From assembly GCF_988243305.1 (NCBI RefSeq), contig NZ_OZ547136.1: a DNA stretch of 64,000 nucleotides; one strand, given 5' to 3'. The position numbers are program-made. Below, one piece after another: positions 9,001 through 15,000 of this stretch (the stretch's first letter is position 1; the number at the start of each line of letters is the position of its first letter).

Positions 9001-12000
9001 CTTATTTGTCATTTTTCAGCATTCGGTTAATGGACTGCTCCAGCCAGTAGCGCTGGGTGCCAAAATTAATCCGCAGGTAGTTTTCGCCGTTTTGTACATA
9101 GTGGCTGCCGTCTTCTATGACCACGCCTGCCTGCCGTGCGAAATGTTGGGTTAGCTGCGTTGCGCTACGCTCATCCGCGCTTACGTCTATCCACGCCAGA
9201 TACGACGATTCCGGGTTCATCATCTTCCACGCCGGGAAGTGGGTCTGGAGGGCATCCGCCAGATACCGGGCGTTGCCTTGCAGATAACCGTTCAGCGCGT
9301 CGAGCCAGGGCAGACCGTGTTGATAGGCCAGAATGATTCCCCATACCCCGAACAAATTGGGCGAGGTAATGGAGTTCTTCTCGAGCTGCTGGCGGAAGCG
9401 CTGGCGCAGCGAGTCGTCTGGAATCATGGAGTAGGAGGTTTTCAGCCCGCCCAAATTGAACGCTTTGTTGGGCGATGTGAGCACGATCAGGTTGTCCTGG
9501 GCGGCACAGCCAGAGGTGAGACAACTGGCGAATTTGCCATCCAGAATGTGTTCAGCGTGAACCTCATCGACCACCAGAATCGTGCCGTAGCGTTGACAGA
9601 GATCGGACACCTGGCGTATTTCTTTCTCGCGCCAGATCCTGCCGGACGGGTTATGTGGCGAGCAGAAGAACCACAGCGTTGGACGGTGGGTTTTGAGCTG
9701 TTCTTCTATCAGATTAAAATCAAGCTGATAGCGGTTTTCCTCCACGCGCAGCGGGTTAGCCAGTACCTGCACGCCCTGGCGCTGTGCCGCCATCGCAAAA
9801 GGATCGTAGACCGGCGTGTTCATCATCACGCTGTCACCCGGTTTGCAGAATGCCTGAACCGTGTAGTGCAGCGTGGATACGGTGCCGTAGGTCAACGTGA
9901 TCCACGACTTTTCCACCTCAACCTGATGACGTTTGCGCTGGAAGGCAATGACCGCGTCGTAGAATTCGTCAAAGCACCAGGTATAACCAAAGGTGCCGTG
10001 CTCCACGATGCGCCGGAAACCGTCAATCACCGCAGGTGGTGAGGTGAAATCCATATCGGCTATCCATAGGGGGATAAAGGACTCCGGGACGTCACCGAAA
10101 CGCGAGCAAACAAAGGTATGGTCCCATTTACGGCACTTATCATTTTGACGCTCAATGATTTTGTCGAAATCAAACATCACTCCTCCTGTTAAATTAAGGC
10201 TTCAATGCCGGTTTTGACGCTCTGTACCTGCGGTCCGATGATCACCTGCACGCTATGCGCATCAAGCATCACCACTGACAACGCGCCTGCCGCTTTCAGC
10301 GCCTGCTGATCGATAAGGCCCATATCTTTCACCACCAGACGCAAGCGGGTAATACAGTTATCAAGCGACTCAATGTTCTCTTTACCTCCGAGCGCACGTA
10401 GGATAAGCTCGTGATCGTATTTTGATTTTCCGCGCGCGCGGGTGTTCGCCTCGACGGCTTGCTGTGCCCCCTGAACATCCACCTCGCGGCCCGGCGTTTT
10501 GATGTTGTGTTTGAGGATGTACCAGCGGAAGACAAAGAAGTAGATGGCAAACCAGGCAATACCAACCGGGAACAGCAGATACCATTTGGTCGACATTCCC
10601 TGCATCACGCCGAAAATCAGCAGATCCAGAATGCCGCCGTCGGTATTGCCGATGGTCACTCCCAGCAGGGCCATTACCATCAGCGCCAGGCCAGACATGA
10701 CGATATGGAAGGCGTAAAGCGCGGGGGCGATAAACAGGAACAGGAACTCAATCGGCTCTGAAATACCGGTGACGACGGAAACCAGCACGCCGGAAAGCAG
10801 CAACCCCTTAATGACCGGCCGATTTTCCGGACGCGCGGTGCGGTAGATGGCGTAAGCCACGGCGGGTAAACCGAAGATAAAGGTCGGCATAAACCCTTGT
10901 GACAGAAACGCGGTAACGTGCGGGCTAAACGGCAGGCCGGCTTTGAGCTCGGCGTAGAAGATATTCAGCGCCCCGGCGACCTCATGGCCATTTACCATTT
11001 CAATGCCGCCTGCTGGGGTAAAACGCACCATCGCCAGCAGGATGTGGTGCAGACCAAAAGGTTTAAGCAGCAGCACGCCTACGCCGTAGAGGAAGGGGCC
11101 GAAAACGCTGGTGCTCTGGATAATATGCCCAATGCCCGCGATGCCCAGCGCGACGTATTCCCACAGCATGGGAATGAACAGACCCACCAGCGACAGGGTG
11201 AGCGCGGTAATAATCGGCACGAAACGAATGCCGCTAAAGAAGGCGAAGGCGTCATGCAGAACCGTGTCCTGAAAACGGTCATGCAGAAAATAGGTGATAA
11301 CCCCAACCACAATGCCACCTAATACCCCCATCTCCAGGGTTTGAATGCCCAGCACGATCGATTGTCCTACCTGTTTCATGGTGGCGGGGTCGGCAAGCTG
11401 GTGGGTAGCCGTCAGGTAATAATTAATGCTCATGTTCATCAGCATGTAGCCAACGAACCCGGCAAAGGCAGCGACCGCTTTGTTGCGCTTGGCAAGCCCC
11501 ATGGGGATCGCCATGGCAAACATCAGCGGCAGATAGGTAAAAGCAAAGCCACCGACCATAGCGATAAAGCCAAAGGTCAACTGGGTAAATTCGCCGCCCA
11601 GAAAGGGAAAACTAGTAATGGTGGAAGGGCTGGTGACTGAACTACCGATACCCAGCAGCAATCCCATAAAGGCAAGAAGCGAAACCGGGAACATAAAGGT
11701 TTTCCCCAGACTTTGTAAAAACTCCCATAATTTTGATTTAAAAGATTTTTTTTGTGTCATATAGGGCTCCTCGAATTTTAGGATAATGGAAGGCACTACC
11801 CGGTTTAAGGACGCGCCTTCATATTTGTGGGACTTATAATTATTTTGAAATATTGAGGTAATACGCTGTTGGATCAGGCCTCCGCCGGTAGCCGTAATCG
11901 ATTTGCCGAGCCGCAGACGGCGATTTTGCTTCTGACCACCTCTTTCATGGCGTCCATGCCAACCCGCATGTAAAAGCGCGGATCGTTGCTCTGCTGATTT

Positions 12001-15000
12001 TCAGCAAACCAAGCTTTGATAGCGTCAGAGAAGGCGATCTTCAACTCGGTTGCAACGTTGACTTTGCAGACGCCTGGCCCAATGGTGCGACGAACATACT
12101 CATCCGGCACATCGCTCGCCCCATGCAGCACAAAGCGGGCAAAACAAACGGCATAAATTCCATTTGTTTTGCCCGCTTTGTGCTGCCTCACCATTTCTGT
12201 CAGATGTTTCACTTTCCTCTCCAGTTCAGATTGCTGCGATATTAATCTTTCGTTTTGTTTCAGTTGATACTGCGTCATGGTGAGATAAAAATAAAACGAA
12301 AGATAATAGTTTTCTGATCTGATTCACAAAAGAAACATAATGAAAGTCAGTGAAACGAGAGTAGCTTGCGCCAATGGGCAAGGTGGGCTTGCATTTGCTT
12401 AATAGAAAGGCGTTAATAGGCAAAACGAAATGAAACGAAAGTTTTACGAAAGGACTTACTATGAGTAATACCGACGCTTCAGGTGAGAAGCGAGTGACAG
12501 GCACCAGCGAGCGACGAGAACAGATCATTCAGCGTCTGCGACAGCAAGGGAGTGTGCAGGTTAACGATCTGTCGGCATTGTATGGCGTATCTACTGTGAC
12601 GATCCGCAACGATCTGGCGTTTCTGGAAAAGCAGGGAATCGCTGTGCGTGCCTATGGTGGCGCGTTGATCTGCGATAGCACGACGCCGTCAGTCGAGCCA
12701 TCAGTGGAAGACAAAAGCGCACTGAACACCGCGATGAAACGCAGCGTTGCGAAAGCTGCCGTTGAGTTGATTCAGCCAGGTCATCGGGTGCTCCTCGATT
12801 CCGGGACCACCACTTTTGAGATTGCTCGTCTGATGCGCAAGCACACTGACGTAATTGCGATGACCAACGGTATGAACGTGGCTAATGCGTTGCTGGAAGC
12901 GGAAGGCGTTGAGCTGCTGATGACCGGCGGGCATTTGCGCCGTCAGTCGCAATCTTTTTACGGCGATCAGGCTGAGCAATCGCTGCAAAATTACCACTTC
13001 GATATGCTGTTTCTTGGTGTAGATGCGATCGATCTGGAGCGCGGCGTCAGCACGCATAATGAAGATGAAGCCCGTTTAAACCGCCGGATGTGCGAAGTTG
13101 CGGAACGGATCATCGTGGTCACCGATTCCAGTAAGTTCAATCGTTCCAGTTTACATAAGATCATTGATACTCAACGTATCGACATGATCATTGTTGATGA
13201 AGGCATTCCTGCGGATAGTCTGGAAGGCTTGCGAAAGGCTGGGGTTGAAGTGATTCTGGTCGGGGAGCTCGCGTCTTCGCTGTGATTCACTATGCCCGAT
13301 AAACAAGCGTTATCGGGCATAATACAACTTAATGTATGAAGAGAATATCAGGCCACCGGTGCCGGGTTAAACACTGCCAGTTGGTTATGCAATCCCCATT
13401 GATCCGAGAGGGTTTTCTTCTTCCCGCTGGCGACGTCGAGAATAAAGTGGAACAACTTCCAGCCCACCTCTTCAATGGTTTCTTCGCCGGTAGCGATAGT
13501 GCCTGCGTTAATATCCATTAAATCAAACCAGTGGTTCGCCAGCCCGGTGCGGGTCGCCATTTTAATGACGGGTACCTCCATCAGGCCGTACGGCGTACCA
13601 CGGCCGGTCGTAAACACTTGCACGGTGATACCCGAAGCCACCTGTTGCGTGCCACAGACAAAATCTCTGGCTGGCGTCGCGGCGTAAATTAATTCGCGTT
13701 TAGTCGGGTGTTGACCGGGCGACAGCACTTCAACAATTGCGGTTTTACCCGATTTAGCAATGGAGCCGAGTGCTTTCTTTACCACGTTGGCGAGGCCGCC
13801 CTTTTAGTTGCCCGGCGAAGGGTTGGCGCTGCGGTCGGTTTTGCCCATATCGGGATAGTTATCGTATCAGGCCATCTCTTCGAGCAGACGCCTGCCCACT
13901 TCTTCATTGATGGCGCGTGGCGTTAACAGATGAATGGCGTCGCGTACTTCAGTGACTTCGGAGAACATCACCGTTGCGCCGCAGCGCACCAGCAGGTCAG
14001 AGTCGTAGCCGACAGCGGGGTTAGTGGTAACGCCGGAGAACGCGTCGCTGCCACCGCACTGCATGCCCACCACCATCACTTCGCCACCGAAGTTTGGGTT
14101 CAGCGCAATATTATGGATGGTGCGAATTGGCACCACGGCGGCCGGTACATTAATCGCTACGCCACAGCCGTAGAGGTGGTTCAAGTCGACCACGCCGTCG
14201 ATGCTCAGGTATTTCGGCAGCAGGTCGCGTTCGATAATTTTAACCACGTAGTCCTCAACGTCTGCCATGCAGTGCACGCTGGTGGTAATACCCAACAGGT
14301 TTTTGGTGCCCACGCTGCCGTCGGCGTTGCGGTAACCTTCAAAGGTGTAATCTTCCTGCGGCTGCTGCGGCTCCGGCACTTTGGTCGCCCGAGGCAGGGT
14401 GTTAAGCGGCGGCGCTTTCGGTAGCGTGACCGTGGATTCGTCGATCCAGCTGCCTTTGGCGACATCGCGTACCGTGTAACCGATAGCGAATGATTTCACC
14501 ATTATGAGGAAGGTTGTTATCCCTTTTCTGGCGTATTCGTCATTCCATTCGTATCCCCGGTACCGGATGTTTATATCGTACAGTGCCGGTGCTGGCATGC
14601 TTTCCTGCAGGTCTGCACCGGTTTAACAAACAAAACTTAACAGAGTCTGAAGGAGTAGTATTCCGTGCAAATAACCGAAGCGTTACTTTCAGAGCCGAGA
14701 GATATCTGGCGTTTTGTTCAGCAGGCGGTGGACCACTGGCCGCGTCTGCTGGCAGTCCACTTCACGCGTCATTCGACCAGAGTAAATATTGATGATTACT
14801 AGATTCGTGTATTTTATCAGGCATTTTACTTGCGAATAAATCCCCTTGCTATCCAGCGAAACCACACAGGTAGCTATTACCATATGTGGTAATACACTAG
14901 TTACAGGAAAAATATGCAAGTTCCGCAATACGTTGTTTGTTGCTCCTTAGCCAGGATCTTTTCTTCCATGCGAGATATGACAACAATTTTGAGGAAGGAT

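Follow-up and report, generated by a model that had tools for sequence, protein, structure and literature searches.

A decayed aga-gar relic on an Escherichia coli island, probably the collapsed remainder of an Enterobacter-type segment with an E. coli-like centre

The stretch of DNA analysed here, called the window, comprises 64,000 nucleotides (nt) of contig NZ_OZ547136.1 (assembly GCF_988243305.1), and between positions 11874 and 14598 it holds the remains of an aga-gar gene cluster: a fusion of the aldolase genes kbaZ and kbaY, the regulatory gene agaR, and a broken garD gene for galactarate dehydratase. We consider it likely that this relic is a collapsed foreign segment of the Enterobacter type, lying on an island rich in insertion sequences (IS) beside the deoK operon, patched with E. 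coli sequence and decaying through redundancy. An earlier sequence-only reading had described an aldolase fragment, a broken dehydratase and a DeoR regulator; all three were found where it had placed them, with similarities far beyond chance, and its description of decay around an intact regulator was correct. Its attribution of the decay to the reductive evolution of a host-restricted lineage is unsupported, since the relic is a second, largely foreign island copy with lesions common to hundreds of E. coli. The lesions were mapped, as that reading had proposed, by alignment to intact homologues, with the K-12 derivative TG1 as the reference for nucleotide alignment, and the fusion, the stop codons, the deletions and the 5' truncation were all located. 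Features are listed in Table 1.

The aldolase fragment is encoded by an open reading frame (ORF) of 134 amino acids (aa) at 11874-12278(-). Residues 49-128 of its product match KbaY residues 205-284 (BLASTP E 1e-47), which agrees with the claim that the C-terminal part of an aldolase is retained. The further claim that the ORF retains only that part did not hold, as residues 23-45 match KbaZ residues 1-23 (BLASTP) and the ORF is therefore a fusion. It covers only positions 201-277 of the 277 in the Pfam domain F_bP_aldolase, short of the complete domain, with its N-terminal and central catalytic and metal-binding parts, expected of KbaY/GatY, a class II tagatose-1,6-bisphosphate aldolase of ~286 aa. 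With residues 1-23 alone remaining of the ~426 aa of KbaZ/GatZ, the accessory subunit of this aldolase, the other partner is likewise far from full length. At the nucleotide level, kbaZ nt 1-70 correspond to window positions 12212-12143, beginning at the native GTG, and are 98.5% identical to K-12. The kbaY portion runs from codon ~205 through the stop, retaining the last ~82 codons and the stop codon, and is 86% identical to Enterobacter kbaY versus 77% to E. coli kbaY. The two portions are joined in frame, as read in a single translation. Measured on the intact locus of Enterobacter soli, ~7.0 kb are absent at the junction, and the deletion removed most of kbaZ, agaVWEF, agaA, agaS and two thirds of kbaY.

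The junction itself carries traces of how it may have formed. A 12-nt direct repeat, CCGCTGGTGCTG, is present in both intact kbaZ and intact kbaY, exactly at the two ends of the deletion. Between the joined portions lies the filler TTGCCCGCTTT (12142-12132), which is the reverse complement of kbaZ sequence 35 nt upstream and converts a native quasi-palindrome into a near-perfect hairpin. This palindrome has 30-nt arms that are 93% complementary and fold into a 27-bp stem, with an RNA folding energy of -52.3 kcal/mol (z = -8.3); an Rfam scan of it returned spurious sub-threshold miRNA matches and nothing else. Because of the shared repeat and the reverse-complement filler, we infer that a repeat-mediated deletion together with a quasi-palindrome template switch probably produced the fusion junction.

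The dehydratase remnant consists of two ORFs, at 13348-13785(-) and 13867-14598(-), which match GarD residues 379-522 (93% identity, BLASTP E 1e-96) and 73-349 (E 1e-95), respectively. The claim that the dehydratase is split in two and lacks its N-terminus was thus confirmed, the SAF domain being the missing part, while its description as frameshifted proved wrong. Translation from 14598 to 13348 in one frame yields a collinear GarD with stop codons in frame at two places (TGA at 13867-13869, TAA at 13804-13806), and alignment to the B2-type core locus is indel-free across this stretch. Farther upstream in garD, an in-frame deletion of 219 nt (73 codons) has its junction at 14062-14075, and the direct repeat CCCACCACCA flanks the same 219 nt in island variant L003, where they are still present. 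Some 60-70 codons at the 5' end, which encode the SAF domain, are missing, and beyond the break at ~14484 the sequence is unrelated to any gar locus. In Pfam terms the remnant has no SAF domain, a partial second domain (profile positions 1-88 of 136) and a split C-terminal domain, and it falls short of the uninterrupted ~523-aa GarD of the UxaA family. Directly past the truncation point, a 45-aa ORF at 14665-14802(+) matches Pfam UCP030791. Its counterpart in strain 3-72 is a longer, frameshifted "hypothetical protein", and the fragment marks the unrelated DNA to which garD was joined.

The order of genes to the left of the fusion is native to other genera. The fusion ORF is followed by a malX-like gene for a phosphotransferase system (PTS) EIICB component (10189-11760(-)), a malY/PatB-like C-S lyase gene (9002-10180(-)) and a glycosidase gene, and all of these together with 'kbaY share 85-88% nucleotide identity with Enterobacter. 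Relatives of the MalX-like protein were collected by a scan of one genome per species, which returned 28 loci. In these, malX and malY lie directly downstream of kbaY in Enterobacter, Citrobacter, Kluyvera, Yokenella, Morganella, Aeromonas and an Escherichia sp., and upstream are agaS, agaA, agaVWEF, kbaZ and a divergent agaR (>20 Enterobacterales and Aeromonas genomes). Wherever the fetched flank extended that far, garD was found beyond agaR, and in several of the loci a homologue of the glycosidase, under the name "enterotoxin", follows malY. The island MalX is 96% identical to an Enterobacter protein. Since kbaY-malX-malY is the native order in Enterobacter and its relatives, the relic is best read as a collapsed copy of that arrangement.

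Two further records bear on the malX-malY pair. In Escherichia sp. MOD1-EC7003 (locus L023, 371-12267), kbaY-malX-malY-agaB lie in the core aga locus; the Aga proteins are 97-98% identical to those of K-12 and MalX is just 88% identical to the island copy. Judged from these sequences, the Escherichia aga locus may originally have included the pair, which E. coli proper may then have lost. The 5.3-kb record JAIJJM010000184.1 (L008), labelled as a metagenome-assembled genome ("MAG: Collinsella sp."), shows 98-100% protein identity to the island malX, malY and glycosidase, and is almost certainly a mis-binned E. coli contig in an actinobacterial assembly.

Nucleotide identity divides the relic and its left flank into three zones (Table 1), of which the centre resembles the E. 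coli core locus and the outer two do not. Within the centre, the short agaR-garD spacer is more diverged than the rest. Near 13843 the identity in 100-nt sliding windows drops from 92-100% to 75-86% without any indel, which sets the right boundary at ~13,800-13,850, inside collinear garD; on the left, identity drops to 77% at the deletion junction. Because a boundary within indel-free garD is the signature of a homologous crossover, the centre was read as a recombination (gene-conversion) patch. The flanking parts have the marks of a xenologous remnant, namely divergence beyond that within the species (77-88%), a gene order that is native elsewhere, and mobile neighbours.

A second copy of the locus was found in a carrier of the relic. 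In E. coli WCHEC020031 (NZ_CP033401.1), the relic lies at 1.63 Mb with 100% identity, and the core locus lies 2.5 Mb away at 4.183-4.202 Mb, where garPLRK, garD, prlF, yhaV, agaR, kbaZ, agaVWEF, nagA(agaA), agaS, kbaY and agaBCDI are all annotated as intact. Two copies were thereby established in this one carrier genome. Relic-bearing records showed two matching places, and other genomes one. Many complete E. coli genomes match the flagged region at 100% identity; at least 80% of it occurs in 499 of 5,426, and the 'kbaY-malX junction is present in 313 of them, always at an identity of at least 99%. No more complete island copy was found among complete E. coli genomes, the 314 records that match 'kbaY-malX all being at least 99% identical, and every match listed for this region has the same truncated aldolase.

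The carriers of these lesions (at least 99% identity) include E. coli from humans, dogs, sewage, spinach and a giant panda. NCTC86, the commensal isolated by Escherich in 1885, has the same lesions and an additional 13-nt deletion in garD, and its AgaR, MalX and glycosidase proteins are identical to those of the relic. As the lesions are common to hundreds of E. coli genomes, they are older than any one lineage and independent of lifestyle. In ten listed contexts of AgaR, neither the glycosidase (629 aa) nor MalY (391 aa) nor AgaR itself (274 aa) varies in length, and MalX is called at 523 aa in nine and 528 aa in one; the garD fragments measure 243, 220, 213 or 211 aa, or are uncalled. These lengths fit a neutral decay of redundant genes and a retention of non-redundant ones.

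The regulator that had been called intact is AgaR, 268/269 residues identical to K-12 AgaR, with both of its domains, HTH_DeoR and DeoRC, at full length in Pfam. The relic agaR is the form found in E. coli lineages without prlF-yhaV. In the B2 strain ST95-32 the core agaR is likewise 825 nt and abuts garD, and the tail of the relic agaR and the agaR-garD spacer are collinear with this B2-type form. Compared with the core agaR of WCHEC020031, the relic copy has nine synonymous differences and one non-synonymous difference (I111L); the donor of the patch was another E. coli lineage and the exchange was not very recent. Between agaR and kbaZ, the control region matches its E. coli core counterpart at 98.4-98.8% identity. 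Five copies of the motif TTTCRTTT, which we take to be the published AgaR-box consensus, lie in this region, out of 15 across the 64-kb window, and all five core repeats have been kept. Among public assemblies, 5,459 indexed blocks contain the exact 274-aa AgaR protein.

A differently decayed form of the island is present in strain 3-72 (NZ_CP155528.1), where the module adjoins pgaA/ycdT and is 96-98% identical to the window. This variant keeps kbaZ nt 1-276, which are E. coli-like, as well as the agaS 3' end and the kbaY 5' end, which are both foreign; the kbaY 3' end is gone, and of malX just 82 nt remain. It also has a 242-nt deletion in agaR with the repeat CGCCGTCAGTCG at its flanks, and the 219-nt piece of garD that the window has lost is still present in it. 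The garD 5' truncation, the sequence beyond it and the E. coli-like centre are the same in both. Because the deletions in the two variants are independent, neither derives from the other, and both go back to a more complete common ancestor.

The course of events that we infer begins with a segment such as Enterobacter and related genera carry, garD-agaR<>kbaZ-agaVWEF-agaA-agaS-kbaY-malX-malY-glycosidase, which would have come to lie on the island. A deletion of ~7 kb between the CCGCTGGTGCTG repeats would have joined kbaZ codon 23 to kbaY codon ~205, followed by the template switch in the quasi-palindrome. In garD, a 5' truncation, a repeat-mediated in-frame deletion of 219 nt and two nonsense mutations would have accumulated. 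The ~1.7-kb centre would have been swapped for E. coli-type sequence by homologous recombination with a core aga/gar locus that lacks prlF-yhaV, and this replacement would explain why agaR is pristine beside neighbours that have diverged to 77-88% identity. Being duplicates of the resident core locus, the island's catabolic genes would decay neutrally, and the non-redundant genes (agaR, malX-like, malY-like and glycosidase) would stay intact in other carriers.

Several observations weigh against this reading. The replacement of the centre is demonstrated at the right boundary alone, the left one being hidden by the deletion in both variants. The best reference is only ~87% identical in nucleotides, so that the donor is not among the references, and the 5' part of garD is ~80% identical to E. 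coli and Enterobacter alike, so that a single donor for both flanks is an assumption. The 3-72 variant itself has an agaR deletion and has lost malX, at odds with a retention of non-redundant genes, and recent spread (at least 99% identity) could equally explain the conservation of agaR, malX, malY and the glycosidase gene. Lastly, the intact core locus was verified in WCHEC020031 and not in the window's own genome.

Regulation and function of the malX-malY-glycosidase module also bear on the choice between explanations. The fusion ORF, malX, malY and the glycosidase gene are co-oriented, and 113 nt (11761-11873) separate 'kbaY from malX. No terminator-like hairpin was seen on the coding strand between them, and with this co-orientation read-through from the kbaZ promoter is therefore possible. 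Direct control of a malX promoter by AgaR found no support, as no AgaR box is present in the spacer of either the relic or donor-type loci. The spacer has a conserved -10-like TATAAG, followed by a stem-loop (~11790-11822(-)) ~25 nt upstream of the malX ribosome-binding site. Compensatory changes were found in 9/10 pairs of this stem-loop across 16 Enterobacterales sequences; it is not followed by a U-run and matches nothing in Rfam. An mRNA leader or a stability element that has so far gone unrecognised is one possible role, and malX may have a leader or promoter of its own.

The glycosidase is a protein of 629 aa, predicted to be exported and GH36-like; its gene occupies 5100-6989 of locus L001, equivalent to 7099-8988 of the window, where it is interrupted. 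No sequence match to Pfam, NCBIfam or the PDB was obtained. An AlphaFold model (pLDDT 88.5) consists of a beta-sandwich, a TIM barrel and a second beta-sandwich, and its best Foldseek matches were the GH36 alpha-galactosaminidase from Flavonifractor plautii and GH36 alpha-galactosidases (E 8e-25 to 1e-18). The fold of the F. plautii enzyme (PDB 9ayu/9awt/8x1b) is the same as that of the model, with sequence identity to the GH36 structures of 11-14% and TM-scores of 0.46-0.63. In Dickeya, one homologue carries the name "predicted exported alpha-N-acetylgalactosaminidase", given by its source. Members of the family are common across Enterobacterales, Vibrio and Aeromonas, often in linkage with aga genes, and the closest fold match acts on the blood-group A antigen. 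The Prokaryotic Genome Annotation Pipeline (PGAP) names the protein "enterotoxin" and newer annotations name it "alpha-galactosidase"; given the model, the former looks like a propagated misnomer. It is plausible that the module scavenges N-acetylgalactosamine (GalNAc) and galactosamine (GalN) and feeds the core aga pathway.

Erosion of the organism's own locus in place, through genome reduction in a host-restricted Escherichia/Shigella lineage, would be consistent with the density of IS elements in the window, where one IS interrupts the glycosidase gene and another copy adjoins a truncated iucD-like ORF, and also with the fact that this exact IS configuration occurs in no complete E. coli genome, so that the host could be a decaying lineage. 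We regard this as very improbable, because hundreds of generalist and commensal E. coli share these lesions at 99-100% identity, an intact core locus is present elsewhere in a carrier, the flanks are foreign (77-88%), and the neighbours of the relic are island cargo and IS elements rather than garPLRK and agaBCDI. It is also improbable that the E. coli-like centre is original, that is, a duplicate of the core locus which illegitimate recombination joined to foreign DNA on both sides. The right edge, within collinear garD, is of the kind left by a homologous crossover, and although the left edge of the E. coli-like tract is a deletion junction in both island variants, as such joining would produce, the two left junctions differ and both variants nevertheless go on into foreign aga genes whose order, agaS, kbaY, malX, is the native one. 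It is hardly credible that the short ORFs encode real small proteins or are artefacts of annotation: gene callers do predict products of 134/112, 145 and 243 aa, but these align collinearly with parts of full-length KbaZ, KbaY and GarD, the garD pieces share one frame and are parted by stop codons only, their lengths differ between strains, and PGAP flags the pieces as pseudogenes. The sequence-only reading had named naturally separate small homologues as the finding that would overturn it; the homologues are full-length in >20 species (KbaY 286 aa, GarD 523 aa).

Regulatory capture of the module is rather unlikely. By this account the deletion brought malX, malY and the glycosidase gene right behind the AgaR-repressed kbaZ promoter and the cassette is under selection; the in-frame fusion would carry translation to the natural kbaY stop, 113 nt before malX, and GalNAc or GalN would induce an exported alpha-galactosaminidase-like enzyme and a transporter that feed the core aga pathway. 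Both agaR and the operator region are intact and differ little from their core versions, and in E. coli AgaR represses agaZ, agaS and itself, according to a passage in PMC4694137 that cites Ray and Larson 2004. An in-frame junction would nevertheless arise by chance in one case out of three, and the palindrome within the fusion (-52 kcal/mol) could hinder expression. Read-through is favoured by the lack of a terminator-like hairpin between 'kbaY and malX and by the donor-type arrangement, in which malX follows kbaY without an AgaR box of its own, whereas the TATAAG and the covarying hairpin upstream of malX suggest a separate promoter or leader. The likeness of the glycosidase model to a GH36 alpha-galactosaminidase, with which the name of the Dickeya homologue agrees, and the conservation of agaR, malX, malY and the glycosidase gene in the ten listed contexts would suit a selected cassette, but the 3-72 variant has lost both agaR and malX. 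We therefore put forward only as a doubtful suggestion that a foreign GalNAc/GalN module shed its redundant genes, kept AgaR and the kbaZ promoter, both refreshed by recombination, and is co-induced with the aga genes of the host.

The reading of a collapsed and patched foreign segment can be set beside several known loci. The E. coli core gar/aga locus (K-12 b3128-b3141) has the same relative order and orientation, with garD converging on agaR and agaR diverging from kbaZ, and is 95-100% identical to the 1.7-kb centre of the relic. The relic differs from it in its chromosomal site, in the lack of prlF-yhaV, of the genes between kbaZ and kbaY and of agaBCDI, and in flanks that are 77-86% identical, beyond within-species divergence. 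The aga locus of the Enterobacter/Kluyvera/Citrobacter/Yokenella type is the sole architecture that explains the adjacency of 'kbaY and malX. Such loci are intact and chromosomal; at ~87% nucleotide identity none is close enough to be the donor, and their agaR is 74-82% identical in nucleotides to the relic agaR. The 3-72 variant shares the module, the garD truncation and the centre with the window and differs in its independent deletions. A precedent for internal deletions that leave stubs in the aga cluster is the agaW'-agaA' deletion of K-12, where agaW and agaA are annotated as pseudogenes; that deletion lies in the core locus, whereas that of the relic lies in a redundant island copy. The K-12 deletion is said, in work by Brinkkotter et al. 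from 2000, to abolish GalNAc use. Pseudogene debris of horizontally acquired DNA is a well-known kind of object, and nothing specific to the history of this relic was found in the literature searched.

Fragmented metabolic genes in Escherichia/Shigella should not be read as pathway loss or host restriction until it is known whether they are the sole copy. A single 2.7-kb stretch here records repeat-mediated deletion, quasi-palindrome template switching, nonsense decay and recombination between island and core, with mechanisms as proposed above. The relic also shows the origin of the aga-linked malX-malY-glycosidase module on E. coli islands, a module that may matter for the use of mucin or blood-group glycans.

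Table 1 Features of the relic and its surroundings, with the zones of nucleotide identity in the last three lines
Feature	Position	Strand	Basis or identity
'kbaY remnant	11874-12131	-	BLASTP, Pfam, nucleotide identity
Filler of 11 nt, TTGCCCGCTTT, at deletion junction	12132-12142	-	Sequence reading, comparison with intact kbaZ and kbaY
kbaZ' remnant, first 70 nt, E. coli-like	12143-12212	-	BLASTP, nucleotide identity
Near-perfect palindrome spanning fusion junction	12125-12186		Inverted-repeat search, RNA fold
Divergent agaR/kbaZ control region, AgaR-box repeats kept	12213-12460		Identity to E. coli core intergenic region
Intact agaR, DeoR-family repressor, 274 aa	12461-13285	+	Protein identity, Pfam
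agaR-garD spacer with hairpin	13286-13347		Alignment; collinear with E. coli arrangement lacking prlF-yhaV (B2-type)
garD (galactarate dehydratase) remnant	13348-14484	-	BLASTP, Pfam, alignment, one-frame translation
Probable E. coli-like recombination patch within foreign sequence	12143-13830		100-nt sliding identity
malX-like, malY/PatB-like and glycosidase genes, foreign segment	7474-11760	-	Gene order in homologues, fold search
IS3-family insertion, 1,309 nt, truncating glycosidase gene	6165-7473	+	Comparison with complete E. coli genomes
Unrelated sequence joined to truncated garD	14485-14789		Common to island variant of strain 3-72
IS3-family (IS2-like) transposase ORFs, between relic and deoK operon	15060-16333	+	ORF listing; absent in NCTC86
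Zone: glycosidase gene, malY, malX, spacer, 'kbaY	7435-12131		84-88% to Enterobacter; 77% to E. coli ('kbaY only)
Zone: kbaZ', control region, agaR, spacer, garD 3' end	12143 to ~13830		95-100% to E. coli core; 74-84% to Enterobacter
Zone: garD middle and 5' part	~13843-14484		75-86% to every reference

The surroundings of the relic are those of an island. In WCHEC020031, PGAP annotates the pieces of the relic as pseudogenes and places the malX, MalY/PatB and "enterotoxin" group on one side and an IS3-family element and an ilvN pseudogene on the other. Past the ilvN pseudogene lie genes for a DeoR-family regulator, a ribokinase, a fucP-like permease and a mutarotase, which together make up the deoK operon; the table of the LAC pathogenicity island (PAI) in PMC6455142 gives the ribokinase accession WP_000350265.1 as DeoK. 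The window likewise has an ilvN pseudogene fragment and then the deoxyribose operon deoQ-deoK-deoP-deoX (16800-21423), separated from the relic by the IS2-like element that is absent in NCTC86. An IS66 element follows deoX in WCHEC020031 and is lacking in the window. The mobile elements neighbouring the relic belong to the IS3, IS21, IS4 and IS66 families, and elsewhere in the window transposases of the IS3, IS21 and IS4 families are accompanied by an aerobactin-like cluster, an Ag43/Cah autotransporter and a helicase-like protein. Two candidate identities were rejected: pheV is not the island site, as the island of WCHEC020031 lies in the region equivalent to K-12 ~1.05-1.09 Mb, and malX-malY-"enterotoxin"-agaR is not the published vpe operon next to deoK, which the LAC PAI table gives as a LacI-family regulator with an ascorbate-type PTS IIA/IIB/IIC.

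The IS that interrupts the glycosidase gene is a common IS3-family element with an ALIL-pseudoknot-type frameshift signal. It cuts the 3' end of the gene and shortens the product from 629 aa to 525 aa (7435-9012). This IS was found at the site in no complete E. coli genome, the best coverage of window positions 1-25000 being 95%. Farther along, the aerobactin-like cluster (47823-57149) comprises IucA/IucC-type synthetases, an acetyltransferase-sized ORF and a TonB-dependent receptor. Its iucD-like monooxygenase ORF (53998-54948) covers only profile positions 138-422 of 431 and adjoins an IS3-family transposase ORF (52675-53565) of 296 aa, the same length as that of the element in the glycosidase gene; from its sequence, the cluster looks like an IS-disrupted siderophore pathway. 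The IS21-family transposase at 22451-24252 is split into ORFs of 180 and 159 aa upstream of an intact IstB helper, and is a degraded element.

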